This document shows, in pieces, positions 3 through 45,680 of a stretch of DNA of 64,000 bases; position 1 is the first letter of the stretch, and each line of letters starts with the position of its first letter. The position numbers and the translations under genes were made by a program. This stretch comes from a virus: IMG/VR virus record IMGVR_UViG_3300034284_002648, positions 16,258 to 80,257 of that record, one strand, 5' to 3'. Under the pieces are notes generated by a model, which was given only the letters and a program-made list of their open reading frames with translations, was not told the origin of the DNA and ran no database searches.

Positions 3-611
3 ACAAACACATTTACTCCAACAAACACATCAACACCAACCAACACACCAAGCTTTTCGCCTACCAATACCGTAACACCCAGTAATACTCCTACCAATAC
101 AGTCACTCCAACATATACTGCTACTCCAACACCCAGTCCGAGATATGTGAATGTTCTAAGTGTAGAACAGTCAAATAAATCGGCTATAGTAGGACTATCT
201 GCTACTGGTTCTTGGACACAAACATTTACAAATAATATTTTTGGTAGATTATCTAGAATAGAAACTATGTTTGTTGGATTATATAGTGGTACAGGTACAG
301 TGCAAATTTACAGTGGACAACCAGGTAATAATATGACACTATTACATAGCCAAAGTGTCAATATTCAGGCCAGTAATTCTTATCAATATAATACTTGGGA
401 TATTACTTCTGGAATTAATATCAATTTAATACCAGGATCTACATATACTATTAAATTTATGCCAAATAATGATTTACCAGATCCATACGGTATGGTAATT
501 AGTTTAAATAATCAATATATTGGAGGAGCTTTCTGTGAGGATGATTCGTGTATTAAGAAGGATAGAGATCTGGTGTTTAGGGTTTATGTAGGGGTGTTAG
601 CCACATCCTAG
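3..611 (+). CDS. 5'-truncated Thr/Pro-repeat protein with a C-terminal beta-sandwich (lectin/adhesin-like) domain
   Basis: The frame of the 147..611 ORF is open to the window edge (TNTFTPTNTSTPTNTPSFSPTNTV...PTPSPRYVNVL), so GTG147 is internal. The C-terminal domain (QTFT...IYSGQPG...LIPGSTYTI...YIGG...DLVFRVYV) looks all-beta. Confidence 0.75.
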   Translation, partial: TNTFTPTNTSTPTNTPSFSPTNTVTPSNTPTNTVTPTYTATPTPSPRYVNVLSVEQSNKSAIVGLSATGSWTQTFTNNIFGRLSRIETMFVGLYSGTGTVQIYSGQPGNNMTLLHSQSVNIQASNSYQYNTWDITSGININLIPGSTYTIKFMPNNDLPDPYGMVISLNNQYIGGAFCEDDSCIKKDRDLVFRVYVGVLATS

Positions 612-622
612 GAGAAAAATAG

Positions 623-3600
623 ATGATCGAATTTGTACAAATTATAAATGGATCAATTAATCGTGGTGTATTACCATCCCTTAATGGAGCAGTATTAACA
701 TCTTATAATCCTCACGGATGTAATGCTGCGGTATTTGATTATTTTTTGGTAATAACTGGTCAAGACGGAGTATCAAATCGCAGAGAGATATTCCTATTTA
801 CAATCAACCACAATACATTTGGTGCTGTTAATATTGGTGGAAAAATCTATGCCCCATACGGAGGAAATACTCCCGCTAAAGAGACATTTGTTGGACTACC
901 TATTCCACTAAGCGGTGAAAGATATTTCATAGATGTTAGACCAAATAGACTAACACCAAATCCACACTGGGCTATGAATCTATGTATATCTGGAAATGGT
1001 TTGGCGTTTACCAAAGATGGTGTTACCGCTGGTTTATGTGCAGCTCCACTAGGAACTATTACACAACCATTACCAACCCCACCTCCAACATCTACTCCTA
1101 CTCCTACTCCTACAACAATCATATCTCAATGTAAATATAATTTAACTATCAACCCAAAAACCCATGGACCAAATACTCCATTAGATACTGGCGTTGATAT
1201 AGATATAACAAATGGTAGAAATATCCGACTAGTAATAGGTACTATTGGAACGATAGATTCTAGTTTTGGTACTCCAAGCGGACCCAATGGACTTCCAAAC
1301 ACCGTTGGACCTAATTATATATTTGAAAGACAGTCGTTGTTGGGTAAAATAGGAATGAATGGAACCCCATTCAAGGTAGGAACATCATATAATAATATAC
1401 CAACAACAAGCGGTAGACTCTACTTGTTTGTAGATTTATCTTCTCCGAGTTTTGCTACAGGCAGTTTTTTATCGTCCATCAGTTACGGCTTTACACCCTG
1501 CATAAGTCAAACACCAACATCTACAGCAACTCCAACAACCACCCCTCCATCTACACCATGTATATTTAATAATAGTATACTTAGTAATAGTAGTTTTGAG
1601 AATGGGGTTACAGATTGGGATAAATATGCTGTTAATTTAGCTCCAAATAAAGGTAAAATAGCTTTATCTTTACCTATGAATGGAACTAATGGTTCACAAA
1701 ATTTCTTAGATACTAGCCCAGAGGGAAAAACGGTAAAAGTATACGAAGACGCGACAATCAGTACTCTTAACTATAGAGTTGGAGGATCCAGCGCCTATTT
1801 CAACCAATCTGCTATAATTAAAGATTCAATAGTATGCAATAATTTTTATTTAGAGGCCAACAAATCTGGATTTTTTAATACAGGTGTTTATTTTAATACA
1901 GGAGAAAATATTTTTATCTCCAGTGAAGGCTGTGCTACATTTAATGGAACGAATCCTTTTTCAGGAGGATATATTAATGGTGTTATAGTTGATTCTGCTA
2001 ATCCAACACTGGGTTCAGTATCAAACAATAATAATGTTATATCTTTTGGAAAGACATATTCTGGTAAAGCTCTATCATCTGGCTACCTATTTTTAGGAAT
2101 AAATGATTCGTTCTATGGAGATAATACTGGAGGATATTGTGTATGTGTGAAAAAAGATATCCTGGACCCAGACTGTAACAGCATAACTAATAGTCCTAAT
2201 AAATTTATAGATCAAACAAAATGTAAACAAAATATTCAGAATTGGATTTATCTAGATGATAGTCAAGATTGGGATTTTATTTGTAGCGGAGATTTTACGC
2301 TTGAGATGTGGATCAATTTTGATGATGTGTCAAAAGTTATAGGTATCTGTGGACAATCAGACGGACCATTATTAAATAATAAATGGGGACTATATTATAA
2401 TGGAACATCCACAACAAATGTTGTTAACGTTGGACATATAGGTATATTAATTGGAGATAAAACATTCTCTTCATCTATTAGCGTACCATGGAAACCTATT
2501 ACTGGAAGATGGTATAATTTAGCAATTACTAGAGAAGATAATAATTGGAAATTCTTTATAGATGGACTACAAATAGGTTCAACAGTTATCTCATCTCTTA
2601 GACCGGGAAGATCATTAGGACAACTAAGAATAGGCGCAGACGGCGAAAATTTTGCCAGATTTAGTGGATTCATGAATAGTTTTAGGATAGTCAAAGGGTA
2701 TGTTGCTTATAAGAATAATTTCATTCCGTCTACTACCCCACTTACAAATAATCTTCCTATCACTGTCAGCAATGCTGATGTTGATTCTGTTGTAGATGGA
2801 AACGAATGCTTGTTACTAAATGCCGATGGATGGGTGTCCCAATCTTTCTTAGCTAGTCCTGGCCAAAGATATATTTTAAGATTTAAATATAGCTCAGATA
2901 TAGCTAATAAAAATATTCTTTTGCCTACACCTACCGTTACTCCAAGTATAACTCCATCTAGAAGAAACTTTACCCCATCAAATTTATTAGATCAACAAAT
3001 TACTGTTGGTAGTGGTCCAGTCGATTTAGTTTCTGATCCAATAAACCGTAAATTATATGTTGCTAATTCTCTAAGTAATAATATTAGTGTAATAGATCCA
3101 TATTCATATAAAACATTGAATACATTCGACACAGGAGCTGGACAGTGGACATCGGTAGTATCTGGTGGCGTGGTGAATACTGCTCCCGGAAAATTTGCCA
3201 AAACATCCGGCAGTAATAACTGGAATGCTCAGGTATACTCCAATGAAGGGTTCGTAAGAAGCGCATACTGCTCCGCTCGTGCATCACAAACCAATGCCGG
3301 TATAATGTTTGGTCTAACCTCTGACCCAAAAGCAGATGCTGATTTTACTGATATAAATTATTGTTGGTATTTTAATTCTAATGGAATTTTAGAAATTTAT
3401 GAAAATAATGTCAGTAGAGGAGGTTTCGGAACATATACAACTTCTACTGTTGTATCCATTACATATGACGGAAATAATATTATATATGCAAAAGACGGAG
3501 CAGTACAGAGAACCGTCAGTCGTCCAATAGGCAGCGCATTATTTTTAGATAGCAGTTTCTTCAACGTTTCATCCGAATTAAATGCTGTTACATTCGCCCC

Positions 3601-6600
3601 ATCCGTTACAGGACAAGGTGGACCAGTAGCACTAGGAATTAATAAGAAAACTAACAAGCTGTATATAGCCAATAATACTAGTAATATGGTTACTATTATA
3701 GATACTAATACAGATGCTTTTATTGGTAGTATAAATATAAATGATGGGCCAAAAAATATAACAGTAGATGATATATTAAATAAGGTTTATGTATCTACAG
3801 ATACATCTGTTGTTGTGTTAGACGGATATAATGATAAAGTTTTATATATTATTAATTGCAGACAATATAATGCTAAACCAGGTAAAGTTGTTTTAGATAC
3901 ATCCTTAAATAGGGTTTTTGTTCTATTAGATCAACCATCATATAGTAACAGCACACCCTCCCTCCTATATTTTGATGGTAATAGTAATGTTACACCCACC
4001 ATTAATACTATCATATCCGAACCATTAAAAGACTTCTATATAGACTCTACATCAAATACCCTACACGCAACATTTAAGTTTACAGGATATGGAAAAGATA
4101 ATCAACTATTTAAATTGAATACTCTGAGTACGAATAAGTCCTTGTCTGCTGAATGTTTCTTGTCAGGAACAACCAAGCTTATGGTTTCTGGCTTAGACCT
4201 AATATATGATCAGGCTACTGGTAGAACTTATCTATATGACAGATCAACAAATACACTATACTTAACATATTCATCTAACATAACTTCTTCGACCAAGAAA
4301 GTATTTGTTACTTCAGGTATAGTTTATGCTGGCTCTTTTATTAAGATTAACGAGGTTTACGACGATCCTAGATTAATTTTTATTAATAGCAGTAATTCTA
4401 GAATATTCTTTGTTAATGTGCCTAATCAGTTACCACTATCGGTTTCTTTAGACACTGTTTCCACAGGAAATAGACCAATTGATGGAGATATCAATCCTTT
4501 AACACTGAAGGCATATATAACTAATTTTAATAGCGAAGATATAACAATAGTAACAGGATTAACTAATAATCCGATTACTTCTGTCTCTAGACAATCTGTT
4601 AATGTTGGTAAAAATCCAAGAGCATCAGCTATCAATAAAAACACCAATAAGATCTATGTATCCCTGATTACCACAAGTCAAATAGCAGTAATAAATGGAT
4701 CCACAGATACAGTTGAACAATATATTAGCGTTAATAAATTTCCCAAATATATAACAGTCGATCACGCCCTAAATCGCATATATGTTTCCACCGCCTCAAC
4801 AATAGATATTATAGATTGTACAACCAACACAATAATAGCATCTATTCCCCATAATTTATCTGCTGGACAATTAGGCAAAGCCATAATTGATTCAAATGCC
4901 AGAAGAGTCTTTTTCATGGTGGATTACACATCATTACTTAATCCTGCTAATGGTAGCTACTCTGTAGTCGCAGACCCCAACGACCCATCATTGCTCTATT
5001 TTGATACTAATTTTACATCTGTTCCAAATTTAGCAAGTATTAATTATGGTCCAATAAGTGATTTCTTTATTGATGAATTTTTTAATAATTTATACGCTAT
5101 TCCTTTCAATGATACAACAACATCTTTCTTAAGAATCAACACTGTTACCTTAGCCAATAGTACCTCTCCAAATATTCTCGATCCAAATAATAAACCAATT
5201 CAAATTGGGAATTCATTGTTATATTACAATACCGTTTCCAGCAGAGTTATACTACACGATCCCGATGCTCAAATTATTTATACATTCTATTCTTTAGCTC
5301 TTAGTGGAACAACAGATATTAAGACGAATGTATACTTAAATAATGTTATAAATATTAGATCTCTATTTATTAATACTGCATATGATGATAATAAAGTATA
5401 TCTATTAAATAGTGACTATGATAGAATTAATATCGCTGATCCATCAACCGTATTGAATGTCACATTTACTCCAACTCCGACTAGGGCAACGGCCACACCA
5501 ACGCCAACGCCTACAATTACACCCCCAAACAATGCTAAAAATCTTATAGTTGCTATAGGTTCGGATAGTGGTTCTACATTATGGAAAAATCCAACATCAG
5601 AATTTGATCCGGTAGTAGGCTTGACACAGACCGTATTTAGCTATAACCCAGATATTTATCCAAACCATTCATTAAATAATGTTGTTTGGACTGAAGGCGT
5701 TGTATTATACACACCAGCAACCCCATCTAATAGAATAGTATTCAAGACAACTTCAGGTAACATTTTACTGGATTCTATCAATATTTGTGGACAACTAAAT
5801 ATTACCAAAACACCAACACCAACCAATACGATAACACCAAGCATCACACCCACCAAAACACCAACAAGTAGCGTTACACCTAGCGTTACTCCAACCATAT
5901 ATACCGACCCATCGTTAAATATTAAACACTATCTTGGTGTTAGTAGAAAAAAGCGCCTATATAGCTGGGGATTGAATAGTAATGGAGAATTAGGTCAAGG
6001 AGACACTATTTCTCGTATCACCCCAACCCTATTTAGGGTCCCAGGATGGAAAAGAGTCATAAGCAACCCATACTTCTTAACTGCATCACCATCCAAGGAT
6101 ATCGGCAATTTATGGTACGGCATCAAAAATAATTATACTTTATGGGAATGGAGAGAAAAATCACCTTCTACCCTTGATGGTGAATTGCTGTTCGTTACTC
6201 CTAATGTCTATAGTTTTGTTTATAAGAATGCAAGTTCTATATACTATATTCATAGCGATTCTCGTAAGCTATATAGTTATGACTTAATACAGTATCAAAG
6301 AAGCTATCAGCCAATTATAGATGAAAAAGTTTATGATGTAGTAAGCATAGCTCCAAATTTCTTTGCTGTTTTATATGATGGCGAAACAGATTTATTAATC
6401 CGCATCAATGGTGAAGATAGCTTTTTGAAATTCAACAAAGATGAATACCTACAATTATCAGCAAATAGTAATGGCACCCTCTTTGCTATAAAAAATGATA
6501 ACAAGCTCTATGCATTAGGCAATAATACTAATGGTCAAATAGGTAATAATAGTAAACAATATATACAATTTTTAACTAAAATTGGTAATATGTCATGGAA

Positions 6601-7735
6601 ATTTATAAGTAGTGGACAAAAACACACCCTTGCTATTAATACAGATGGTAATCTATATGGCTGGGGAGATAATTTCTATGGTCAACTTGGAGACGGAACT
6701 GCAAGAGAAAGACTTGTTCCAACAGCGTCGGTGAATACATCTACGGATTGGACAGAAGTTTTTGCAGGCACGACCTATTCTCTTGGTAAACAATCTAGTA
6801 ATGTTTTATATGGCTGGGGTCAAAATAATGAATATATGTTAGGCCTCTTCCCTCCAACAACAAGCAACATATCTGCACCAACAGCACTATTAGGTTATTG
6901 GACGGACATTACATTATCTAGCAATAGTGTTTTTGCTCTTGGAGAACCACCACCAACACCCACACCATCAGTTACAACTACAGTAACTCCATCTATTACT
7001 CCAACAAAAACACCAACACAAACACCAACAACCAGCAATACTCCTACTAAGACACCAACATGTACAGGTACTTCGACCCCGACAAATACTGCTACTCCTA
7101 CTAATACTGTAACAAATAGTGCAACACCCACTAATACTCCTACTCCCACATTAACCGGTACTGTAACTGTAACACCAACCGTATCTAATACGCCAACAAA
7201 TACAGCTACTCCAACTAATACTGCAACTCCTACAGTAACAAGAACTCCAACAAATACGCCAACTAACACAATCACTCCAAGTAGTACTAGTACGCAAACT
7301 CCTACAAATACTCTAACAAATACTCCAACAAATAGTGTCACTCCTAGTATTACTCCAACCATGACTCCCACTCAGACTATGACAAACACTCTGACAAATT
7401 CACCAACACCAACTATCACTCCATCAACAAGTCCATTGCTTACTGTATTTTTCTATTATATTTCTGAAAGCCAATCTGATATTTGTAATAATAAAGAGGC
7501 CAATACAGTTAGAGTTATTAGTGTATACGATAGAGATAATAGTTTACAGTCTGGATCTTTTATATACAAAGATAAATATGCAAATACAAAATGGGTATTT
7601 AATGATTTAGAAACTATACTAAATACCAGCGCCCCTGTAATATATATGTTAGAGCTAAGTTCTAATAAATTATCTACACTTATTGCAGATAATAATGGAT
7701 ATGCTATAATAGATGAACAAGACATTAGTTGCTAA
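623..7735 (+). CDS. Giant multidomain virion adhesin/fibre protein (PA-IL-like x2, LamG/ConA-like, split CBM-like, YVTN propeller x2, RCC1 repeats, PT tracts)
   Basis: 2370 aa with an AGGAG RBS upstream. LamG motifs [10 protein letters not shown] / WYNLAITRE / [13 protein letters not shown]; YVTN-type KLYVANS, KLYIANN, KAYITNF; RCC1-type [30 protein letters not shown]; long TPT tracts. Confidence 0.8.
6945..7435 (+). repeat. Coding Thr/Pro low-complexity tract (ACN-CCN-ACN-AAY degenerate repeats)
   Basis: About 160 aa of TPT/TNT. Similar tracts lie at 3-146, 8025-8145, 8710-8885, 9185-9530, 12445-12730, 15585-15925 and 33384-35066. Confidence 0.9.
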
Positions 7736-7753
7736 TAGAATTGATTATAATAT

Positions 7754-9814
7754 ATGCTATACAATATAAATTTATCACAATATAATTTATGTCATACATT
7801 AACCACCACTACAGTAGATATAGATACTACTGATATAAGTGTTGGTAACTATCTATATAAAACAAATAATATTCCTTTTTTATGGACAGAATTAAGAGCT
7901 ATAAGCTCATTATTTGCCACATCTAGAAGTTTCTATCTCAATAGAACCAATGATACGACCACCATACAAGTAAAAGAAGACTTGACAAATGGCTATGCAT
8001 TAATTGTGGAAGTCAACGCAACATGTCCTACTCAAACTCCTACTCCGTCCATTACAGCATCCAATACTCCCACACCAACTAATACGCCAACACCCACTAA
8101 TACTAGAACGCCCACAAGAACCCCAACTGTTACACCTAGTCCTCCTTTAAATAGATATTTATATTATGTCTCATCTAATTTAGAAGATGTTTGCTATAAT
8201 AGATCTTCTACAGTAGTTAATCCTATCAGTCTGTTCGATATTAATTCAACCCTAGAAATAGGGTCTTTCATATATAAAAACTCATCAGCTACTAGCAGAT
8301 GGTTATTTAGTGAACTCACCACAAGATTAGGTGTTGTGGTATCTAAACTATATTTAATTCAGAGTAGTACAGGTTTGGTGGCCAGTATAATTTCTGGAAC
8401 GGGTGGCTTTGCCGTCGTCGATGCAGACAACATACAATGTCCTGCTATGCAAATGTCAGATGAAACATATTTATTATGTCATACAAATTCATATGTTAAT
8501 GTACAAATCAGCACAAAAAGTTTAGCAATCAGCAATTATATTTATAAGAATAATGGTATAGATAATTGGACTTGGACAGAGTTAGTGGCATTGGATCCAT
8601 CTTTTTCTGGTGCTGTAAAATTATTCTTAAAAAGGAATAACTATATTATACGTATAGAGCAAGACATAGCAACAGACTATGCTGTTATTACAGATACAAC
8701 CACCATATGTCCAACACAAACACCTACTCCAACCAGAACATCTACACCAACTATAAGTGTAAGTCCGACAGTATCAGTCACACCATCTAATAGCAACACT
8801 CCTACTCCGAGCATTACTCTAAGTCGCACACCAACAAACACCCCTACTCCATCATATTCTCCTACTCCAACACCTACAGCAACAGACCCATTGAATGGAG
8901 TATACTATTATCTTTCTAATGATTCTTATGCTTTATGTCATAATAATCCTGGTAAAATAATTTTAGTTTATGATAATAACGGTATACTAAATATTGGAGA
9001 AATATTATATCAAACATCAAATGCTTTAGATATTTGGATGTATAGTGAGCTATTAACACTATTAGGTTTACTATCATCTGATGAACTATATATTAGAAGA
9101 CAAATAGGTGCTTCAACAACAACCTACAAGATAATATCTAATCAGAATGGGGAATCAGAAGTTGCAGATATTCAAGTTTGTGTTACACAAACGCCAACAC
9201 CAACTCCAACGAACACTCAAACACCCACTAATACTCAAACACCAACACAAACACTTACTAGTACTCCTACAAATACAAATACTCCTACTACTAGTGAGAC
9301 CCCAACAAACACACCTACCAATACAAATACTCCTACAATGACGGAGACACCAACCAACACACCTACACCAACTAATACGGCCACACCAACTATAACAACT
9401 ACTCAAACACCAACTAATACTAGTACCCCAAGCGAAACACCAACTAATACCCCAACACCAACCAACACATCAACAGTAACTCCTACTGCCACAACAACTA
9501 GTACCACTACAGTTACTCCTTCTCCAACAGCTATTTATATTTATAAAGCGATAAATATGAAAATTAATAGAGTAATTATTGGACATAATTATAAAGTAGA
9601 ATTGTCTACAGACGATATTGGATTGGCCAAGGTTGAACCATCCATAATAACATTTACAGGAACTTATGATCCTCAAAATATAGCATTTAAAATAGGGTTC
9701 TCTGCTGCTTTAGCTACCATTATATTAAATGCCAAAGTAACAGATTTAGATACAAATATGATAGAATATAATACTGTATTTATTAAATGTAATGAAATAC
9801 AAGATTGTTATTAA
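7754..9814 (+). CDS. PT-rich structural protein with four Cys-bounded ~90-aa repeat domains and a C-terminal Ig-like domain
   Basis: 686 aa. Four repeats of C...G.(Y/F/I)(I/L)Y(K/Q)...W..(T/S)EL...(L/F)Y(L/I)...YA.I...C separated by TPT tracts. Confidence 0.7.
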   Translation: MLYNINLSQYNLCHTLTTTTVDIDTTDISVGNYLYKTNNIPFLWTELRAISSLFATSRSFYLNRTNDTTTIQVKEDLTNGYALIVEVNATCPTQTPTPSITASNTPTPTNTPTPTNTRTPTRTPTVTPSPPLNRYLYYVSSNLEDVCYNRSSTVVNPISLFDINSTLEIGSFIYKNSSATSRWLFSELTTRLGVVVSKLYLIQSSTGLVASIISGTGGFAVVDADNIQCPAMQMSDETYLLCHTNSYVNVQISTKSLAISNYIYKNNGIDNWTWTELVALDPSFSGAVKLFLKRNNYIIRIEQDIATDYAVITDTTTICPTQTPTPTRTSTPTISVSPTVSVTPSNSNTPTPSITLSRTPTNTPTPSYSPTPTPTATDPLNGVYYYLSNDSYALCHNNPGKIILVYDNNGILNIGEILYQTSNALDIWMYSELLTLLGLLSSDELYIRRQIGASTTTYKIISNQNGESEVADIQVCVTQTPTPTPTNTQTPTNTQTPTQTLTSTPTNTNTPTTSETPTNTPTNTNTPTMTETPTNTPTPTNTATPTITTTQTPTNTSTPSETPTNTPTPTNTSTVTPTATTTSTTTVTPSPTAIYIYKAINMKINRVIIGHNYKVELSTDDIGLAKVEPSIITFTGTYDPQNIAFKIGFSAALATIILNAKVTDLDTNMIEYNTVFIKCNEIQDCY

Positions 9815-9825
9815 AAGGACATTTT

Positions 9826-10050
9826 ATGGCTATTAAAAATATATCATTGTCTGATGTTGCAGATAAACTAGTTGTCAGTAGTATGAACATTAACGATAGT
9901 TCATTGACGGAAAGAAAAAACAACATCTTTTCAACAGCATCATACTATTTATTCTCAATTAATAAACCAGCTTTTGCTATAGAACTAGCAGAGAACATCA
10001 ATCCTGTAACTTTCAGTCCGTCTAGAGACTCTCCACCTTTGTCTACATAA
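9826..10050 (+). CDS. Small hypothetical protein (74 aa)
   Basis: An AAAGGA RBS precedes ATG9826 (MAIKNISL...), a better start than the TTG9805 in the track. The ORF fills the gap between two large genes. Confidence 0.6.
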   Translation: MAIKNISLSDVADKLVVSSMNINDSSLTERKNNIFSTASYYLFSINKPAFAIELAENINPVTFSPSRDSPPLST

Positions 10051-10051
10051 T

Positions 10052-12772: not shown

Positions 12773-12782
12773 GATTAATTAT

Positions 12783-16040: not shown

Positions 16041-16044
16041 GTAC

Positions 16045-16057
16045 GGTGTATAATACT
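16045..16057 (+). promoter_or_regulatory. Putative promoter element GGTGTATAATACT
   Basis: Intergenic, contains TATAAT, and lies ~25 nt upstream of the AAGGA RBS/ATG16083. Related motifs occur at 44032-44044, 60921-60930 and 62611-62622 (- strand). Confidence 0.55.
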
Positions 16058-16082
16058 TTGAACAATTAAGGAATATATAATT

Positions 16083-16946: not shown

Positions 16947-16982
16947 AATAAGACTATAAACAAATTAAGATAGAGGAAACAG

Positions 16983-18818: not shown

Positions 18819-18821
18819 AAT

Positions 18822-20777: not shown

Positions 20778-20790
20778 TAGGAGATAGATA

Positions 20791-26547: not shown

Positions 26548-26551
26548 TAAT

Positions 26552-33376: not shown

Positions 33377-33383
33377 TTAATAG

Positions 33384-35069: not shown

Positions 35070-35086
35070 ATAGGAGAGATTTAATT

Positions 35087-35506
35087 ATGGAAATAAATAT
35101 AGATTTATTAGATATATTTTGTGAATTTGAACATAAAGACGATAATACTTATGTGTGCAAATTATGCAATAATAGAATGTCTTATGTTTCTAAGGATGGT
35201 GAGATTCCTAAAATACCATGCGTAACAAAGTTATCCAAACCCATTCCTGTTCCGAAAGTTCAACATCAACAACCAGCTTTACACAAGAAGATTTTTAATT
35301 TTATTGTTGCAGTATATAATCATATACGTAATGGTGGTAAGAGAACCACGCTAGAAGAAAGAACCAAGCGATTGAACATATGCACTGGATGCGAATACTA
35401 TGATGGTATAGCATGTACCAAATGCGGATGTCCAATCACTAGGTATCAACAATATATTAGTAAGCTAGACTGGAAAGATCAAAAGTGTCCAATCGGTAAG
35501 TGGTAA
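35087..35506 (+). CDS. Cys-rich metal-binding phage protein (DUF6171-like C-terminus)
   Basis: AGGAG RBS; RLNICTGCE...CTKCGCP...KCPIGKW C-terminal motif. Confidence 0.65.
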   Translation: MEINIDLLDIFCEFEHKDDNTYVCKLCNNRMSYVSKDGEIPKIPCVTKLSKPIPVPKVQHQQPALHKKIFNFIVAVYNHIRNGGKRTTLEERTKRLNICTGCEYYDGIACTKCGCPITRYQQYISKLDWKDQKCPIGKW

Positions 35507-35511
35507 TATGA

Positions 35512-35856
35512 TTACTTTTTCTTACCTTTATTATCAGACTCTTCTTTCTGCCACTTATGCCAGCCTTTATTAGGTAGCCAATTCCCTTCATCGTCTTTTC
35601 TCTTCGGAAAAAGAGTACCACCCTTTTTATGCTGACCAAATGCTAGAACGGCACCGCAATCATTGCATCGTAATTCATAGTAGTCATTACTGTCTACATT
35701 TCTAACCACGAATCTTAAATTGGTGCTTCCACATAGTCCACACTTTTCTTCAGCGAAAATTTCCTGAATAGTGGCTAGTTCCTTAAAGATTTCCTTTTGA
35801 CCAGATCCCTCTAGTTCGAACTCTAGTCTATCTCCTACTTTGTACTTAACTTTCAT
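35512..35856 (-). CDS. Zn-ribbon protein of unknown function
   Basis: CGLCGS...CNDCGA; GAGG RBS; last gene of the - arm. Confidence 0.7.
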   Translation of the reverse strand: MKVKYKVGDRLEFELEGSGQKEIFKELATIQEIFAEEKCGLCGSTNLRFVVRNVDSNDYYELRCNDCGAVLAFGQHKKGGTLFPKRKDDEGNWLPNKGWHKWQKEESDNKGKKK

Positions 35857-35864
35857 TTTTCACC

Positions 35865-36578
35865 TCATGGTTTCCAATTTTCTGAATATCCCAAAAGACT
35901 TTCTGGAATATCAGAAATGTTTTGTTGATGTTTAGATAACTCTCTTATAATAGAGACAGCATCATCATGCATCAAGCTCTTAACATTATTTTCATTGAAT
36001 CCAAGTTTATTAATTAGTGATAATGTATTAATATTTAAGCGTTTTGACATAACGTCTATAAAGTTAATTTGATTATTACTGATTTTACTAACACTATCAC
36101 CAGTAGGATCATCTTCAAGATTTGTGGCCAATTCTTCCGCAGCCACTACTTTTCTTAGCTTTAGAGCCCTTCTTAATGCTCTACCTTCAGCCCTAGTTTC
36201 TGCAACGGCAACCGGATGATTTCGATAAGTTTTATCGCAATTACCCCAATAAACGTCTGCCGCCCCGCTTACTGTACGACAACGGTTTAAATCATCGGTC
36301 TCGACACCCTTATCATTTAAAACGTAGCTTATGGTGTGTACCACGGTGGCTCTTTTTTCATTTGAAGGCTCAGGATTCTGTACCACATCGCTGGTAGACT
36401 GGATAACAGAACAATTCAGAGCAATCTCAAAAATTCGCCTAAGTCCATCGGTTGTTGGATTGCCATCAATCTTTTCATCATCAGATAATAGACCTAGAAC
36501 ATAATCATTCCATTCTAAGTCATTTGGCCCAATTTTCTTCGTTTCAGTAGATTCTACAACTTTCTCTTTTTTGACCAT
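35865..36578 (-). CDS. Rad52/Sak-like single-strand annealing recombinase
   Basis: AVAETRAEGRALRRAL helix motif typical of Rad52-superfamily phage annealases, plus a C-terminal ISNNQINFI motif. Confidence 0.55.
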   Translation of the reverse strand: MVKKEKVVESTETKKIGPNDLEWNDYVLGLLSDDEKIDGNPTTDGLRRIFEIALNCSVIQSTSDVVQNPEPSNEKRATVVHTISYVLNDKGVETDDLNRCRTVSGAADVYWGNCDKTYRNHPVAVAETRAEGRALRRALKLRKVVAAEELATNLEDDPTGDSVSKISNNQINFIDVMSKRLNINTLSLINKLGFNENNVKSLMHDDAVSIIRELSKHQQNISDIPESLLGYSENWKP

Positions 36579-36579
36579 T

Positions 36580-37383
36580 TTAGTCTCCTAGTTCTATAAT
36601 CCTATTATTATTTGATGATTTATTATTTAGTTGATCAAGAGCAGATCGTAAATCTTGATATATTAAACTTGCTCTAGATTCAGAAAAATCCTTAGTTTGT
36701 TTTATCCTTATCAAGCTCCAACCCTTACCCAATATCAAGCCGGTTTTTTTGTTGTCGTATTTTTGATTTCTTTGTAAAGATTCATCGCCCCAAACAGGCT
36801 CGAAATGAGATGGGCCGTCAACTTCTATTGCCGTATTCATTGTAGGGAGGAAAATGTCTATTTGCAACTTGGTATTTACAAGAACTTGTTCTTTGTGAAA
36901 TTCAGCTTTGTATCCATCTGATATGAGTGCCTTAAAGAGAAATTTCTCTAATTTAGAACCTGTTTTACTAGCATCTCTAACTGCTTGGTTTGCTTTTTTT
37001 AGAATGTTATCTTTTGTATTATCGTCTAAAGATTCCCACGCTAATCTAGCCTTTTCTTTTCTTTCTTTTATTTCTTTATCAGATAATGAGTCCCAAGATT
37101 TTAGAACACCCATACCTATCTTTTGTTTGGTGTCCTCGTCTCGTTCTTTGCCCTTTGTCGGATGCTTATGCTTACCAGTAGACAAAGCATTTTTTTGAGC
37201 CTCAGACTTAGTACGAATATCTATATTGAGCCTTTTGGCATCTCTCCTTATTTTGTTGGCATATGTGCCATAAATAGCAGCAATATCAGCAAAGCTTTTA
37301 TTTTGATTAAGATAAAGATCTTTTAATATTTTTTCTTTGTCACTATCACTAAGTAGTGAATATGATGTTTTTGAAGTTTTCAT
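36580..37383 (-). CDS. DUF559/Vsr-like PD-(D/E)XK endonuclease with N-terminal HTH and NUMOD3-like repeats (possible free-standing homing endonuclease)
   Basis: LQIDIFLP...AIEVDGPSHF...DNKK...GWSLIRI; N-terminal KSFADIAAIYG HTH and KGKERDEDTKQKIG. Confidence 0.7.
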   Translation of the reverse strand: MKTSKTSYSLLSDSDKEKILKDLYLNQNKSFADIAAIYGTYANKIRRDAKRLNIDIRTKSEAQKNALSTGKHKHPTKGKERDEDTKQKIGMGVLKSWDSLSDKEIKERKEKARLAWESLDDNTKDNILKKANQAVRDASKTGSKLEKFLFKALISDGYKAEFHKEQVLVNTKLQIDIFLPTMNTAIEVDGPSHFEPVWGDESLQRNQKYDNKKTGLILGKGWSLIRIKQTKDFSESRASLIYQDLRSALDQLNNKSSNNNRIIELGD

Positions 37384-37822
37384 ATGATAATACTTCCATA
37401 ACTCCTATTGGTTTTTTGTTCCAGCATCTCTGATATATGTTGTAAATATTATAGTTTTGTGCAATAACTGAAATTTTTTCATTTTCCGCATAGATATTTC
37501 TTAAATCAAAATGATTAACCTGGGCATAATTCATCCATTCTGGGTGTTGTAGAAAATAATATATCTGGTCTATCCCTGGAAAATTTTTAACTATATCTAT
37601 AACCTCTAGATCAAAGACAAATAATCTACCTTGCCAAAACTTAGCTTCCGATAGTGGCAATATAGGCATATTTAATTTATTAGTATTGATACTATTATTA
37701 TATGTAAAACATAGATATTGATTAACAGGATCATTCTGTATTAATTCTAGAAATAAATTATGAAGATTATTGTATATATGATTGTTTGATACTATGAAGC
37801 CAATATCTTTATTAATTGCCAT
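37349..37822 (-). CDS. Hypothetical protein, possible degenerate GT-B N-terminal domain
   Basis: Likely start MAINKDIGF at 37822, overlapping the upstream gene end. Rossmann-like alternation of strands and helices; part of the GT cluster. Confidence 0.45.
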   Translation of the reverse strand: MAINKDIGFIVSNNHIYNNLHNLFLELIQNDPVNQYLCFTYNNSINTNKLNMPILPLSEAKFWQGRLFVFDLEVIDIVKNFPGIDQIYYFLQHPEWMNYAQVNHFDLRNIYAENEKISVIAQNYNIYNIYQRCWNKKPIGVMEVLSYENFKNIIFTT

Positions 37823-38441
37823 AAAATTCTTTCTTAATATATTCATTTATATCTGTGATATTTTGATCATGATGAACACTAGTTACTTCTCCAGAGTCCA
37901 TATCAATATATGACGCACCACATAATAGACTCTCGTTTTTATATATATTATTTTTCCCAACAATATATTTATATGAAGAGAAGATAAATGCCTTTTGATG
38001 CTCTAGCAATGTTCCGAGATTCATAGGGTGTTTTATATTGGGATTATTAAACATATGAACTACTCTTGTATCACATAATTTTAGAATATTCTCTGGTAAT
38101 TCATTGATATTATCAAGTAATATAGCGATATCATTACTTTTTTCCATAGAGTATTTTCTGAAAATTTCAGTATTTACCACATGAAATAAACTATCATTAT
38201 CTATGATAAAAATGGATTTTTCTTTATCTGTAGCAGCAGTATAGAATGCTTTGACTTCCATGCTATTAAAATCATGTTCGCTTACACAAATACGATACGG
38301 CTGGATAATATCGTAAGCTTTAAAAATTTCTTTCATATCTATAACATAGACATCAACATTATTCTTATGGTGATACATTGCTATTTTAAGATTATCAAGA
38401 AGTCTGCTATTGCTTTTGGATACAATAATCTTATTATTCAT
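37812..38441 (-). CDS. Degenerate GT-B/CgeB-like glycosyltransferase-related protein
   Basis: VNTEIFRK and IFSSYKYIV...NESLLCGASYI echo the GT-B 'vd...F' and 'Ea.acG' motifs. Confidence 0.45.
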   Translation of the reverse strand: MNNKIIVSKSNSRLLDNLKIAMYHHKNNVDVYVIDMKEIFKAYDIIQPYRICVSEHDFNSMEVKAFYTAATDKEKSIFIIDNDSLFHVVNTEIFRKYSMEKSNDIAILLDNINELPENILKLCDTRVVHMFNNPNIKHPMNLGTLLEHQKAFIFSSYKYIVGKNNIYKNESLLCGASYIDMDSGEVTSVHHDQNITDINEYIKKEFYGN

Positions 38442-39121
38442 ATAAAAATTTTAGCCTTATTAATGTCTTTGATATGATTTATTTTTGTTATCTGTGTTTT
38501 GGGAATCATTACCTTGTCAAAACTAACAGATCTTTCCAAAAGCTTGTTAACTAATTCAAAGAAAAATAGTGTTTTTAGTTCGTGGGGCAATAACATATCT
38601 TTTACAATAGACATTGTTTCATTGTTAAGGTAGATGCACTCAGACCACAAAACAGGCAGATCATAAAACAAATACTCTATAGAGTTCTGATCGGCACAAC
38701 CTATATTAAAGTTGTTTTTTTTACCCTTAATCAAGAAAATGGAATTATTTGATTTATTAAAGTTTTTAGCAAAATTAAATTTTGTTATAATACCATTATT
38801 AATAAAGATAGCTCCATTATTATTTTCTTTTTGTCTGATATAGGATACAACCGAAGTCATCTGACCACTAGTGTCGTATTGTTTATTTTCGAGTATTGAT
38901 ATGTTTTTAGGAGAAATTATTTTTGATGTTAGAATAGTTTTTTTAATTCTATCAGACTCAAAACCCGTGAGTAAATAGATGTGATTATTTTTATAAACTG
39001 ACCTAAGAATAGAAATCTGATGTTCTATCAGGGTTTTGCCCCTGATTGTTATTAGTGCTTTTGGGCCAAAAGATTTCATACCTTTGGTTATTTCAGGTAT
39101 AATCATTACTATATCAGTCAT
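38438..39121 (-). CDS. Sugar/choline-phosphate nucleotidyltransferase-like protein (NTP_transferase/LicC-like), divergent
   Basis: KGMKSFGPKALITIRGKTLIEHQI...LLTGFESDRI...LENKQYDTSGQMTSV...KINHIKDI. The canonical AAGxGxR glycine loop is missing. Confidence 0.65.
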   Translation of the reverse strand: MTDIVMIIPEITKGMKSFGPKALITIRGKTLIEHQISILRSVYKNNHIYLLTGFESDRIKKTILTSKIISPKNISILENKQYDTSGQMTSVVSYIRQKENNNGAIFINNGIITKFNFAKNFNKSNNSIFLIKGKKNNFNIGCADQNSIEYLFYDLPVLWSECIYLNNETMSIVKDMLLPHELKTLFFFELVNKLLERSVSFDKVMIPKTQITKINHIKDINKAKIFI

Positions 39122-39845
39122 TATATAACACTAATTTGCACCCCGGATTATCTATAAAAAATGTATCTGTATCATAAAAAAACTTAGCTTTGTCACCACC
39201 AAGAATATTGTATGTGTCGTATGTCATAAATAGACCATCTAGAGCAGAGGTACTTTTCATATAAACGCCATAACTATGGTTGATCACAGATTCTGTATGA
39301 ATTGTGTTCATAATATCGTCTAAGCTATTAAAAGAATCCTCTGTGGCTATATATAAGAATGAATTAGATTCATGCTTATTAACGACAACATCTACCCCAG
39401 AAATAATAGATATTACTTCATCTATGTGTGGCAGTATTTTATTAACTTTCCATGGAACTTTTATTTGTTGCTCAAAACTATGAACTGTCAAACCATCTAC
39501 ATTTTTACCAAAACATATTATATTTTTTGGATAAAAACTAGATTTATTAACTTTATCTATAATATATGATATTGATTGATTGATTGTATCAAAATTTATA
39601 ACTAGCGTATAATAAATTTTATTCTTAGCAAATATATAGTCTATAATTTCTTGTTTATTGACTTTATCTTTATAAGTTTCTAATGTATTTTTGCCAAAAG
39701 CATATGAGCAACTGTAATTGCAGATGGTTTTGTTCTCGGAATCTACCAATATTTCAGGGTTATTTATTGCGTCCGGTATATCAAAAAAACACCACTTATC
39801 TTCTGAATTAAATATACATTTTTTACAATCGGTTGTATTATTCAT
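39114..39845 (-). CDS. Hypothetical protein with a Cys-rich N-terminus and a possible GT-A-like domain
   Basis: CKKCIF..CFF..CNYSC, then YTLVINFD...SSFYPKNIICF reminiscent of a GT2 N-terminus. Confidence 0.4.
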   Translation of the reverse strand: MNNTTDCKKCIFNSEDKWCFFDIPDAINNPEILVDSENKTICNYSCSYAFGKNTLETYKDKVNKQEIIDYIFAKNKIYYTLVINFDTINQSISYIIDKVNKSSFYPKNIICFGKNVDGLTVHSFEQQIKVPWKVNKILPHIDEVISIISGVDVVVNKHESNSFLYIATEDSFNSLDDIMNTIHTESVINHSYGVYMKSTSALDGLFMTYDTYNILGGDKAKFFYDTDTFFIDNPGCKLVLYND

Positions 39846-40228
39846 CAGTAGTTAATTTTCTTTAGTGTTAATGCTATTTTAAAATTTTCTTCTATCATCT
39901 TATATAGAACTATCTTTGGTTCTAGAGACACAATAAAATTAATAATAGTCATAGGTTCAGTATAAAATTCTATAGTTTGTAGGAGCTTTAGGCCAGTTTC
40001 AACATCTATAGTATCTTTACATAGCGCATCAATAATCTTAGAATAATCTATAATTTTAACTACTAGCTCACCATCTTGTCTTAATTTTTCTAGTAATAAA
40101 TTGATTGTCGGTATTTTTTTATCTTTCTCTATACAATCAATATCTTCAAGAACTATAGCTAATTGAGAAAAATCAGCAATATTGTTTAATGTATTAATGT
40201 TGTTTTTATTAATAGATAATAGATTCAT
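39845..40228 (-). CDS. Truncated class I SAM methyltransferase-like protein
   Basis: LEDIDCIEKD...LLLEKLRQDGELVVKIID matches the C-terminal half of class I MTases; no GxG SAM motif. Confidence 0.4.
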   Translation of the reverse strand: MNLLSINKNNINTLNNIADFSQLAIVLEDIDCIEKDKKIPTINLLLEKLRQDGELVVKIIDYSKIIDALCKDTIDVETGLKLLQTIEFYTEPMTIINFIVSLEPKIVLYKMIEENFKIALTLKKINY

Positions 40229-40965
40229 AATTTAATTACCTTAGATAGTATTTTAGAGAATGTGGCAAAGTCATAATTTATTTTGGTATTATTTGCATGA
40301 CTAATGTTGGAGGGTACGATTCTTTGATTTTTTAGAATATCAATGGATGATATTGTTGAGCAACCAGCCGATAAAGCGACGATATTATCAATATAATTTT
40401 TGTATACAACAAGATTATAGTCAGCTAGACTGTTGATTAAACTATAATAGTCTTTATGAGATGAAAAGTCAATCACATCTATATTAGTCTGTTTAAGTAT
40501 GTGAGCTATATCTTTATAATTATTATTGTCAATAATTAATACTCTATCTCTTTTTGCAGATGGGTTTGATATTTTAATTTTAGGCAGAGCTATGTTTATA
40601 TTTGTGTCAAATAAATCATTGTTTGATTCGATAAGATTGATTATTGTAAATTTTTGTAGCCTATTTTTGATAAGAAAAATATCTTCTTTTTTCATGTAAG
40701 AAATGTCTGAATGTATAAATACAACTTTATCGTGCTCGCCAGACATGTAATAATTTTGATATGAATCAGACATAATATATGATTGATAGTTATTAATTAA
40801 TACCGATTTTAGAGTAAGGTATTCAGACACATCTGAATTATTTATTCTGATAATTTTTTCTCCAAAAGCATGGTCTATTAATAGATCAAAAGATGAACCA
40901 TTATTAATATAATGTATTAAAGAATTATTATTTTTACAATAGAGTTTATTATATAGCTTATTCAT
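40225..40965 (-). CDS. Degenerate GT-B-like protein
   Basis: LINSLADYNLVV...IVALSAGCSTIS resembles the GT4 'eAmaaG.pvi' motif without the Glu. Confidence 0.4.
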   Translation of the reverse strand: MNKLYNKLYCKNNNSLIHYINNGSSFDLLIDHAFGEKIIRINNSDVSEYLTLKSVLINNYQSYIMSDSYQNYYMSGEHDKVVFIHSDISYMKKEDIFLIKNRLQKFTIINLIESNNDLFDTNINIALPKIKISNPSAKRDRVLIIDNNNYKDIAHILKQTNIDVIDFSSHKDYYSLINSLADYNLVVYKNYIDNIVALSAGCSTISSIDILKNQRIVPSNISHANNTKINYDFATFSKILSKVIKL

Positions 40966-41855
40966 ACAATGATCTTAGATATGCCTGTGGATTTATCATT
41001 TGAGTAAATTTGATTCATAGATTTGTTTTCAATAGGAAATACATTTTTAAGTTTTTGATAGAGGTCGTGATCATCAAACTTATGGAAAAAATTGCAGCCA
41101 CTATCAAACTTAAATAGTTTATTATGATAAGAAACTGTTTCTATCTCATATCTCTTGTCTAAATTGTATTTTCCTATAATTCTTTTTCTTAGACTTAAAG
41201 CATAATAATATTCTAGATCAGATACAAAAACCGTGTTCATTTGCAACAAACAGTCAATTGTATTAATAATAGACATTCTAATATTATCATCGATAGTATC
41301 GTTAATGGATAGTATAATTTTAGATGATGACGGATCTATGTTCAATTGTCTATTAATATCCTCAATATATGAGAGTGTTTGATTTGTATCTTCGGATTCT
41401 ATACCTAATAATAAAATAATATTATTTTGATGTTTGCTAGATTCATAAAAAACAGATATTAAATCCTTCAAGATACCTATGTCTTGTTTAAAATTTAAAA
41501 TACATCCATACTTATAAAATTTATTAAATGCATTACTAATTTTTAAAGAGTCATTATTTGGCTTAAGATACATATTAAGTTTTATGCACTCTATGCCGTT
41601 GTTGTCTAATATATCTTTATGAAAATCATTTGATACACAAACATGTGACACTAATTTGTATGATATTGGAAAATATAAATTTGTAACGCATGGAATATTA
41701 GGTATTAAAATATTTTGTTTATATTCTCTAGCTACAAAAATCTTGTTATAGTATGAAAATTGTAGAACGGTTTGTTGCGAAGGTTTTGCTTCTTCAACCA
41801 ACTTGTCTGAAAAATAAGAAAACTTATCTCTAATGAGTAACAGATTGCTATTCAT
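40962..41855 (-). CDS. Degenerate GT-B-like protein
   Basis: KYGCILNF...LISVFYE...IILLL...MSIINTIDCLL...YYALSLRKRII parallels the GT4 C-terminal domain. Confidence 0.45.
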   Translation of the reverse strand: MNSNLLLIRDKFSYFSDKLVEEAKPSQQTVLQFSYYNKIFVAREYKQNILIPNIPCVTNLYFPISYKLVSHVCVSNDFHKDILDNNGIECIKLNMYLKPNNDSLKISNAFNKFYKYGCILNFKQDIGILKDLISVFYESSKHQNNIILLLGIESEDTNQTLSYIEDINRQLNIDPSSSKIILSINDTIDDNIRMSIINTIDCLLQMNTVFVSDLEYYYALSLRKRIIGKYNLDKRYEIETVSYHNKLFKFDSGCNFFHKFDDHDLYQKLKNVFPIENKSMNQIYSNDKSTGISKIIV

Positions 41856-43540
41856 GCGTGTGATTCTTTTATATGTGCGTATTCTATGAAATCTTCATTA
41901 ATCTTATTGTTATTTTTTATAAAGCTTACAATAGTATTATTATTACGAATAATTGTATTAAAATATTCAATTGCATCTTTCCATGAGTATGGAACAACTT
42001 TCTGATTATCGTTTTGATAACCCTGCGTCAGCTTTTGTAGTATATTTAATATAAAGTATGAGTCTATCGTATGGGTGCCATTTAAATAATTTGTACAGAT
42101 ATGTTGTAGCTTGGCTAGGTCAGGATCTTTTGAGCTATTGATAAGTTCTAGAGATAGAGGAGAATGTATTTTCCAGTCCTTTATTTGTTCATATTTATTG
42201 ATAGGATCTTGTTGTTTTTGTTCAAAAAGCTTAGTGAGTCTATTTTCCCATTTCAATATAATATTTTCCCAATTAAAATGTTTAATACATAATTCTCTGG
42301 TTTTTATTCTCTGTTGGAACTTCATCGGGTTGGGTATGTGGATATAGTCATAAAGTATATTAACTAAACTGTCATTATCTGGATAAGCTCTATATGCTTC
42401 TGTTTCCAGCTCTTTAAACATTGTTGCAATATTAACCGGATATGCATTGAGCTTGGATACTATATCCTCCATAGCACTATATGGAATCGTTACTATCGGA
42501 ACACCACAAGCAGCAGCTTCAACTTGAGGCATACCAAATCCTTCACATATAGAATATTGGATATAAAGATCGAAAGCGTTGTATATACCAACTAACTGCT
42601 CCTGTGTTACTCCAGCAGTAACAGAAGGAAAAGTAGCATGATTATTACAATATATGCAATTTCTTGTTGAGCCGCTATAGACATCAGCAAAAACCTTATT
42701 GCAATTTTTGCACGTATATGTCAATAGTACCTTATTTAATAATCTATTCTCTTTCAATAAAGACGGTATATTCCAGCCCAAATAGTCTGGATAACCAGTA
42801 TGTAAATACAAGAATACCTTGTTTGCAAAAGGAGACTGTTCTTTTTCAAGTCTATCAACCAGTAATCTAAACGATTTAATTAATTCTGGTATTAATTTTC
42901 TTTTTTGATTTCTCATTACAGAGCCAAGAACAATACTGTCTGTAGGTATTGATAGTGATGCCTTGGAGGCATTAGTGTCGAGCATTGTATATTTTTGAGT
43001 ATCTATACCCGGAGAAGCTGTATCTACATAGTTGATTGTATTATTTGTTTGTTGTAACAAAATATCTCTAGCCCAATCAGAGTATGTAAAAATAGAATCA
43101 GCACCAGAATAAGTATCAAGCCACATCTCTTGTTGAGGATATGAATCCACAGTTGGCATAAGCATCCAATGATAACATTTCCTCATAGGAGAGAATGCTT
43201 GATAGGAATTCATCCAATAATCTCTGATATCAATAACTACATCTGGCTGAAAATCTAAAAGAGTTTTTTCAAATCTCCATCTACCAAATGCATTTTCTGC
43301 ATTAGCAGAGTATTCTTGAAATCTACTATCGTTGCTTTTAACAGCATTAGCATAGTATCTCCAGGATATGTCTTTATCTCTAGGATCATTGACAAAACCA
43401 TAGCAAGCCAATTCTGCCACATGAAATAGTGGATTTGAATGTAGTCTACTTAATAGTTCTTTTCCGTATACAGAATATCCGGTACTTAAAAAACTAGCTT
43501 CATTACATAACAAAATTTTCAGCCGCTGTTTTGTATTCAT
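41852..43540 (-). CDS. GT4-family (GT-B) glycosyltransferase with a Zn-knuckle insertion
   Basis: STGYSVYG; GSVMRNQKRK; YNAFDLYIQYSICEGFGMPQVEAAACGVPIV (intact EX7E); CKNC...CIYC insertion. Confidence 0.9.
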   Translation of the reverse strand: MNTKQRLKILLCNEASFLSTGYSVYGKELLSRLHSNPLFHVAELACYGFVNDPRDKDISWRYYANAVKSNDSRFQEYSANAENAFGRWRFEKTLLDFQPDVVIDIRDYWMNSYQAFSPMRKCYHWMLMPTVDSYPQQEMWLDTYSGADSIFTYSDWARDILLQQTNNTINYVDTASPGIDTQKYTMLDTNASKASLSIPTDSIVLGSVMRNQKRKLIPELIKSFRLLVDRLEKEQSPFANKVFLYLHTGYPDYLGWNIPSLLKENRLLNKVLLTYTCKNCNKVFADVYSGSTRNCIYCNNHATFPSVTAGVTQEQLVGIYNAFDLYIQYSICEGFGMPQVEAAACGVPIVTIPYSAMEDIVSKLNAYPVNIATMFKELETEAYRAYPDNDSLVNILYDYIHIPNPMKFQQRIKTRELCIKHFNWENIILKWENRLTKLFEQKQQDPINKYEQIKDWKIHSPLSLELINSSKDPDLAKLQHICTNYLNGTHTIDSYFILNILQKLTQGYQNDNQKVVPYSWKDAIEYFNTIIRNNNTIVSFIKNNNKINEDFIEYAHIKESHA

Positions 43541-44036: not shown

Positions 44037-44064
44037 ATTATACAAATGGCTGACACCGAGTCAA
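44037..44064 (-). promoter_or_regulatory. Sigma70-like promoter for ssb (TTGACT-N16-TATAAT)
   Basis: -35 at 44064-44059 and -10 at 44042-44037, ~47 nt upstream of the ssb ATG. Confidence 0.7.
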
Positions 44065-45677: not shown

Positions 45678-45680
45678 ACT

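Follow-up and report, generated by a model that had tools for sequence, protein, structure and literature searches.

We analyzed a 64-kb window (bases 16258 to 80257 of one 80,257-bp viral contig, IMG/VR record IMGVR_UViG_3300034284_002648; coordinates below are those of the window) from a large uncultured aquatic phage in which long Thr/Pro tracts run through a series of very large proteins. Our explanation, which is tentative and falls just short of what we would call probable, is that one arm of the window encodes fiber-like proteins, that their Thr/Pro spacers are O-glycosylated, and that the enzyme initiating this glycosylation is of the GT60 type. The plus-strand arm would thus encode beads-on-a-string fiber or adhesin proteins made of RCC1 propellers, a ConA-like lectin, and small Cys-bounded sandwiches, and the (T-P-T-x)n spacers between the folded modules would be extended linkers selected at the amino acid level. 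Soluble phage enzymes would probably O-glycosylate the spacers in the cytoplasm. The likeliest initiator would be a GT60-type polypeptide GlcNAc-transferase and not the window's own glycosyltransferase (GT) cluster, an operon headed by a GT4 gene, which may lengthen these glycans, help to build them, or have a different target. The initial annotation of this DNA had also proposed that the phage O-glycosylates its Thr/Pro stalks, and it had assigned the task to the GT4 cluster. The first of these claims is plausible and gains indirect support from GT60, which tracks the TPxT motif both within and outside the clade; the link to the GT4 cluster did not survive the comparisons described below.

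The plus strand of the window from 3 to 35506 is occupied by a series of very large open reading frames (ORFs). With tracts defined in a 30-amino-acid sliding window (T+P+S of ≥60% and T of ≥30%), seven plus-strand ORFs carry them (3 to 611, 623 to 7735, 7754 to 9814, 10052 to 12772, 12783 to 16040, 16083 to 16946, and 33384 to 35069), for a total of 1,371 residues, in agreement with the at least seven genes and more than 1,000 residues first estimated by eye. Tracts make up 2,180 of the 26,588 residues encoded by the whole contig (8%). Their sequence is (T-P-T-x)n, where x is mostly N, S, K, R, Q, V, or I, and the corresponding DNA motif ACNCCNACNNNNACNCCN (TPTxTP) occurs 81 times on the plus strand of the 80-kb contig, with no occurrences on the minus strand or in a shuffled sequence. 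Repetitiveness of the tracts at the DNA level is weak, and tract positions and lengths are retained in orthologues of only 37 to 40% identity; the composition therefore looks selected and not the product of recent slippage. Pfam assigned head domains to several of these proteins, three of which contain RCC1 repeats and one of which contains a ConA-like Laminin_G_3 domain, which bears out the lectin and propeller heads that had been predicted. No tract or cluster protein contains a hydrophobic 19-mer above a Kyte-Doolittle score of 1.6, a signal peptide, or a transmembrane segment. The tract proteins thus lack signal peptides, as annotated, and the enzymes and candidate acceptors share one compartment.

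The comparison covered 80 IMG/VR loci fetched around homologues of the window's GT4, out of at least 345. The GT4 operon is present in all 80 relatives, whatever the type or load of linker. A scan of 37 whole records for the TPxT motif returned 0 to 107 matches. One monophyletic subclade scored zero; in a member of it (G012), at least four proteins have poly-Thr linkers ("TTTTTDAP") instead. Two large relatives that had appeared to be TPT free while bearing the operon (DNA motif count of 0) were discarded as such, as they carry poly-Thr TTTTTDAP linkers at the protein level. Thr-rich linkers of some kind and the GT4 operon are therefore found together in all clade genomes examined. Because neither varies within the clade, co-occurrence of the cluster with tract load, which had been put forward as a check, is uninformative there. 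Outside the clade, we sampled 26 contigs of ≥50 kb chosen only for the motif TPTxTPTxTP. GT60 was present in 11 of these and the GT4 operon in 2, leaving 24 without it. Four GT60-bearing genomes of 217 to 324 kb without an A1-type GT4 have 28 to 143 TPxT matches each. Long TPT tracts without the GT cluster, which the initial annotation had considered incompatible with its proposal, are thus found in a wide sense, in those 24 contigs and four genomes. Loci matching PF11397, the GT60 profile, are rare overall (at least 575 in 2.9 million IMG/VR contigs). By these counts, Thr/Pro tracts are common in phages that lack the window's cluster; GT60 seems strongly enriched with them and tracks them better.

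GT60 is a family of protist mucin-type polypeptide alpha-GlcNAc-transferases (PMC8724618). PF11397 was detected in all eight large TPxT-bearing relatives (G001, G003, G006, G008, G013, G017, G020, and G021; E values of 1e-56 to 1e-65), three of which are complete genomes with direct terminal repeats (DTR), whereas the poly-Thr subclade lacks it. The nearest large relative of the contig is G001, which is colinear with it gene for gene and has a GT4 that is 71% identical. In G001, the GT60 gene (101055 to 102332; PF11397, E value of 1e-74, with PF11397 matches in 12 further relatives) heads an operon (99431 to 106659) that includes an FkbM gene and two RMNT_CmcI-like methyltransferase genes and lies ~29 kb past the point where our contig ends; the proposed initiator would accordingly head an operon with sugar O-methyltransferase-like genes. 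The G001 protein is soluble, without any hydrophobic segment, and the metal-binding D-x-H motif (D102-S103-H104) is invariant in seven GT60 proteins of the clade, all from relatives of this phage. The gene occupies a fixed site between conserved flanks in G008 and G001, and these flanks abut in G012, so its absence there is syntenic. We relied on this synteny instead of CheckV completeness of ≥90% because homologues of TerL, portal, and major capsid protein (MCP), a block located at 45 to 57 kb in the DTR genome G008, were not found in G001 or G012. CheckV is inflated in this clade and rates both of these linear contigs near complete (G001, 94%; G012, 100%). A contig that had seemed to be a clade member with tracts and no GT60 (G082) ends approximately at the expected GT60 site and was set aside as uninformative.

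Further sugar genes were seen in these relatives. Near the GT60 operon of G001, between 80 and 98 kb, GT1-type genes (at 80.8 and 94.7 kb) and GT2-type genes (at 93.7 and 97.6 kb) form a large second sugar region past the reach of our contig. In G012, a GT2-family gene (4971 to 5828; E value of 3.5e-9) directly follows the gene for a 981-amino-acid protein with a 95-residue TTTTTDAP tract, and the same genome carries a GT11 gene and two Methyltransf_24 genes.

Several points weigh against an O-glycosylation of the spacers started by GT60. Six TPxT-selected records rated 93 to 100% complete by CheckV have neither GT60 nor the GT4 operon, so tracts do not need GT60. No PF11397 gene was found in the 80,257-bp contig, which covers about half a genome, and the presence of GT60 in this phage would be an extrapolation from G001. 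In the relatives that have it, the GT60 operon lies 40 to 50 kb from the structural genes and is not adjacent to the tract genes. The GT60 enrichment (11 of 26) was counted in TPxT-selected contigs only and not against size-matched random phages, the contrast between GT60 and TPxT within the clade is a single phylogenetic split and hence one evolutionary event, and CheckV completeness is unreliable in the clade. The case for glycosylation is also comparative throughout.

A serious rival is that the tracts are plain, unglycosylated, proline-stiffened spacers that set the reach of a fiber while the GTs act on other targets, such as small molecules, proteins of the capsid or tail, or precursors of the host envelope. 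PT linkers function without glycans in many bacterial proteins, and the six records rated near complete that lack both GT60 and the GT4 operon are what plain linkers would predict. The nearest solved relatives of the window's GT4 by sequence (BshA, MshA-type, and sucrose-phosphate-synthase-like enzymes) are small-molecule transferases, and the many further GTs of the relatives (GT2, GT11, and more GT4) have no assigned targets. Set against this, GT60 is protein specific and acts on Thr-rich tracts (PMC8724618), it is found in 11 of the 26 TPxT-selected contigs despite its overall rarity, and a poly-Thr protein gene of the poly-Thr subclade has a GT2 gene immediately after it. We consider plain linkers rather unlikely, if well worth keeping in view.

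A second alternative is that the GT4 and the seven genes downstream of it themselves O-glycosylate the TPT tracts, with the degenerate GT-B proteins as acceptor-binding partners, in the way that GtfB is the acceptor-binding partner of GtfA. The GT4 gene (41852 to 43540, minus strand) encodes 562 amino acids and matches PF00534 over residues 308 to 362 only (43.4 bits, against a cutoff of 26.4). Its EX7E motif (E333-x7-E341) is invariant in 24 homologues of 49 to 86% identity, in line with the intact GT4 that had been annotated. The protein has a 4-Cys Zn-ribbon insert (C277, C280, C295, and C298) and a C-terminal extension of ~130 amino acids, and its family comprises more than 2,400 homologues. 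A search of PDB profiles with the GT4 gave enzyme matches confined to the EX7E region. Immediately downstream, p1 (297 amino acids; 40962 to 41855, minus strand) has a predicted GT-B fold (predicted local distance difference test [pLDDT] score of 87.6) whose best match is chlorovirus B736L (3oy2; E value of 8e-8); the model has 168 PDB matches at an E value of ≤1e-3, and after 3oy2 come TarM, SdgB, GtfA, Asp1, and Gap1.

This assignment has points in its favor: the intact EX7E of the GT4; the similarity of the p1 model to the protein O-GlcNAc transferases SdgB and GtfA and to the noncatalytic Asp1 and Gap1; the solubility of all operon proteins; and the presence of the operon with some Thr-rich linker in every clade genome examined. 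In p1 of the window and of most clade members, EX7E is lost along with an 11-residue deletion; it is kept (PSYGEAFCRPAAEAL) only in L024, L027, L040, L063, L079, and L080, which are the poly-Thr subclade plus L079. Apart from L079, it is thus only the GT60-lacking subclade whose p1 has an intact catalytic motif, a hint of mutual substitution. Against this assignment, the operon is invariant across linker types and loads, which deprives its co-occurrence with linkers of meaning, and it is missing from 24 of the 26 TPxT-selected contigs and from the four large TPxT-rich GT60 genomes. The fold matches are generic to GT4, with TarM, BshA, and PimA among them, and the operon follows SSB and DnaE as part of the replication arm instead of being placed with the structural genes. 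That the GT4 cluster is the tract-glycosylating machinery, as originally annotated, is therefore improbable.

The idea that the GT4 operon has phage DNA as its target and glycosylates hypermodified bases to evade restriction takes its appeal from location, as the operon is directly behind SSB and DnaE in an arm with dNMP kinase, dCMP deaminase, and ribonucleotide reductase (RNR), and from a short PC4-like single-stranded DNA (ssDNA)-binding match in the N-terminal domain of the GT4. This match (residues 79 to 120, to 6ycs and 1pcf, via IDIR[DE]YWM; E value of 4e-4) spans only ~40 residues and is probably due to chance, though the gene adjoins SSB. In T4-like DNA glucosylation, the acceptor base is made by a ThyA-family dCMP/dUMP hydroxymethylase or through a TET plus C5 methyltransferase route. 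No ThyA-family hydroxymethylase (PF00303) or C5 DNA methyltransferase (PF00145) was found in the contig (G000), G003, G008, G012, or G020, which disfavors DNA as the substrate suggested in the initial annotation; a search of the same five for Tet_JBP (PF12851) was likewise negative, although its control gave no match. Three of the relatives have an ordinary ThyX. We regard DNA glycosylation as very improbable. For the host surface, the other substrate suggested, we found no positive evidence, and the operon encodes no membrane protein.

Returning to O-glycosylation of the spacers, a fuller scheme can be drawn, which we think unlikely in its entirety. Many large aquatic phages would have a mucin-type pathway of their own, in which GT60, methyltransferases, and further GTs coat the spacers with methylated glycans to give a stiff, protease-resistant brush. 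The GT4-pseudoenzyme operon would act as an elongation or chaperone complex, and p1 would initiate in the poly-Thr lineages that lack GT60.

The synteny of the GT4 operon is strict. In all 80 loci, the GT4 is directly behind SSB and DnaE, with gene order and sizes kept, and the replication block (SSB, split DnaE, exonuclease, primase, and DnaB) is upstream of the GT4 in every locus. The typical sizes of the products that follow GT4 in these loci are ~330 (p1), ~290 (p2), ~138 (p3), ~250 (p4), ~225 (p5), ~240 (p6), and ~152 (p7) amino acids. After p7 come three strongly conserved genes, which are followed by the end of the structural arm in convergent orientation. Because order and size are kept in all loci, the low-GC stretch is a fast-evolving conserved operon and not a mobile island. 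The operon is immediately next to the structural arm's end, yet it is transcribed with the replication arm. From the arm end (35506) to the end of the first cluster gene (37349), the distance is ~1.8 kb, matching the ~2 kb given initially. One lineage differs in the GT4 itself: in G039 (136381 to 138063, protein P0015), the GT4 stops after residue ~431, and the ~130-amino-acid extension follows a TAA stop codon. On this evidence, the extension can apparently be a separate polypeptide or is dispensable.

Downstream of p1, p2 (246 amino acids) and p3 (127 amino acids) occupy 39845 to 40965 on the minus strand; p2 has a weak motif resembling a GT-B C-terminal domain, and p3 received no assignment. 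The next gene, p4 (243 amino acids; 39114 to 39845, minus strand), has a predicted GT-A/nucleotidyltransferase-like fold (pLDDT, 90.6; best match GtrB 5ekp, E value of 1e-5) and an N-terminal 4-Cys cluster, and it is missing from several sublineages. The nucleotidyltransferase-like p5 (227 amino acids; 38438 to 39121, minus strand) matches NTP_transf_3 with an E value of 2e-5; this fits the nucleotidyltransferase-like gene of the initial annotation, although the score of 25.2 bits is just below the 27-bit cutoff. Where a GxGxR motif would stand, p5 has a P-loop-like PEITKGMKS.GSK. The last two, p6 (209 amino acids) and p7 (165 amino acids), occupy 37349 to 38441 on the minus strand and are syntenic in all loci. 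Pfam scans of the members and PDB profile searches gave no match for p6 or p7, and searches of PDB sequences with p1, p2, and p5 profiles were near-empty. A weak GT-B C-terminal-domain motif (Y..EA..CG) is common to p6 and the GT4, and hhalign comparisons of p2 and p6 with the GT4 gave matches only 36 to 39 columns long, which we treat as a lead, not a result. The ESM Atlas suggestion that p6 is a P-loop ATPase was rejected, as it has no Walker A motif. Of the several GT-B- and GT-A-like genes annotated in the cluster, p1 and p4 are thus backed by models, whereas p2 and p6 have a short motif only, and the annotated methyltransferase-like gene was unconfirmed by Pfam, PHROGs, or PDB profiles.

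The three conserved genes that end the operon (35512 to 37383, minus strand) encode p10 (114 amino acids, TFIIB-like Zn ribbon, 80% identity), p9 (237 amino acids, 68%), and p8 (267 amino acids, NUMOD3/HNH-like DNA-binding matches, 62%). They are much more conserved than the genes with sugar-enzyme folds. They are probably not sugar enzymes and may instead serve in regulation or recombination, outside the sugar module. Most operon members have lost catalytic signatures. As predicted from motifs and models, the GT4 operon is a clade-universal module of one catalytically intact GT4 followed by degenerate GT-B, GT-A-like, and nucleotidyltransferase-like proteins.

The structural arm begins in the window with the 3' end of a 1,768-amino-acid ORF that starts upstream (3 to 611, plus strand, as are all the genes of this arm) and has a TPT tract in its first 54 window residues. 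The 2,370-amino-acid multidomain protein that follows (623 to 7735) has five TPT tracts (350 residues), the Laminin_G_3 lectin domain, and RCC1 propeller repeats. A 686-amino-acid "beads-on-a-string" protein (7754 to 9814) consists of repeated ~100-amino-acid modules with three TPT tracts (265 residues) between them. Two RCC1-repeat proteins come next, one of 906 amino acids (10052 to 12772) with two TPT tracts (126 residues, compared with 141 in the G001 orthologue) and one of 1,085 amino acids (12783 to 16040) with a single 119-residue tract near the C terminus (125 in the G001 orthologue), and then a 287-amino-acid protein with a 57-residue TPT tract (16083 to 16946). Four large tract-free proteins of 611, 651, 1,918, and 2,274 amino acids (16983 to 33376) have no Pfam match and are 63 to 76% identical to their G001 orthologues; that of 2,274 amino acids is conserved in 51 of the 80 loci. 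In the 561-amino-acid protein (33384 to 35069), 400 residues (71%) are tract. The description of this protein as nearly all mucin-like was thus slightly overstated, given a non-tract core of ~140 amino acids (residues 230 to 371). Its slot is variable, with protein-level homologues in 2 of the 80 loci and tract-rich ORFs of 287 to 729 amino acids filling it in about nine. The last gene of the arm encodes a 139-amino-acid Cys-rich protein (35087 to 35506) conserved in 50 of the 80 loci. In the DTR genome G008, TerL, portal, and an MCP-like gene are located upstream of the giant and tract proteins on the same strand. From this gene order, we infer that the tract proteins would make up the far end of the module of late structural genes and be located on the virion.

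Two other features of the relatives' structural genes were recorded. The structural arm of G012 (L081 to L089) includes single ORFs of 7,794 amino acids (47422 to 70806) and 4,126 amino acids (22848 to 35228), which are very large for a phage. Proteins of ~1,050 to 1,090 amino acids made up largely of collagen-like G-x-Q/G-S-x triplets are encoded in G008 (39352 to 42627) and G012 (13299 to 16448), and Pfam Collagen reached an E value of 6e-53 among the G012 ORFs.

The window has a GC content of ~34%, and its replication and nucleotide-metabolism arm is on the minus strand from 43.6 kb onward. This arm encodes SSB, a split DnaE, an exonuclease, a PD-(D/E)XK nuclease, dNMP kinase, primase, DnaB, RecA, PhoH, a class II RNR, and dCMP deaminase. 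SSB (43616 to 43990, minus strand) is the first gene of the replication block. DnaE is divided into two ORFs (629 and 538 amino acids) with a DnaQ-like exonuclease gene between them (44061 to 48430), a layout kept in all 80 related loci at 61 to 73% identity. Judged by its DTR relatives of 200 to 244 kb, the contig appears to be incomplete, at about half a genome. No close relative was found in INPHARED, where a megablast search was empty and the best identities were ≤34% for the N-terminal part of DnaE and ≤24% for TerL (taken from a relative). A GT4 identical to that of the window is also present on a 203,525-bp contig, and a metagenome scan returned only relatives of 72 to 78% identity on short contigs. 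Two possible affiliations were rejected: the moraphages (PMC12619734) are a different clade that encodes PolB, and the group 1 GT genes of cyanophages S-CBS4 and S-EIVl are only 22 to 23% identical and occur in other gene contexts.

Among known systems, virion glycosylation in mycobacteriophages Che8, Corndog, and Myrna (Freeman et al. 2023, as summarized in PMC12619734 and PMC10877033) resembles what we propose here in that soluble GTs encoded by the phage, with methyltransferase genes alongside, act in the cytoplasm on structural proteins of the phage itself. According to these summaries, the mycobacteriophage glycans are on the C termini of capsid and tail tube subunits and were demonstrated by mass spectrometry, whereas the acceptors that we propose are the long mucin-like (TPTx)n spacers inside fiber-like proteins, and the candidate enzymes belong to other families (GT60 and a GT4 pseudoenzyme operon). 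The GT60 proteins of Dictyostelium and Trypanosoma cruzi (PMC8724618) share with those of the relatives a PF11397 match (250 bits for the relatives' gene), the D-x-H motif, and Thr/Pro-rich repeat tracts as acceptors, which in the phages are candidates. Most of the protist enzymes are located in Golgi membranes, unlike the soluble phage proteins, and the gene was not found on the window's contig. In GtfA/GtfB, acting on serine-rich-repeat adhesins, and SdgA/SdgB, acting on SD-repeat proteins, a cytoplasmic GT4 likewise stands beside a degenerate GT-B paralogue, and long low-complexity repeats of hydroxy amino acids are the candidate acceptors here as well. The TM-scores of p1 are only ~0.5 and generic to GT4, however, and the phage has no accessory Sec system or signal peptides and has tracts that are Thr/Pro and not Ser rich. 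The fibrils of Megavirinae and the chlorovirus capsid (PMC10117803 and PMC5408694) also depend on virus-encoded sugar-nucleotide and GT machinery for a surface coat, and a chlorovirus GT, B736L (3oy2), is the top structural match of p1; those systems belong to eukaryotic giant viruses, use different gene families, and have chemically characterized glycans.

The experimental precedent that we found in the literature for phages glycosylating their own particles is limited to a few mycobacteriophages. The GT4 operon, with one GT4 predicted to be of the active type and seven degenerate enzyme folds, offers a clean natural case of pseudoenzymes under selection. If spacer glycosylation is true, an abundant group of uncultured freshwater and marine phages would also sugar-coat its particles, with a chemistry taken from protist mucin synthesis or common to both. 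Such phages would be a source of new soluble protein O-glycosyltransferases with simple repeat acceptors, and the coat would bear on protease resistance, adhesion to particles and hosts, and evasion of recognition.

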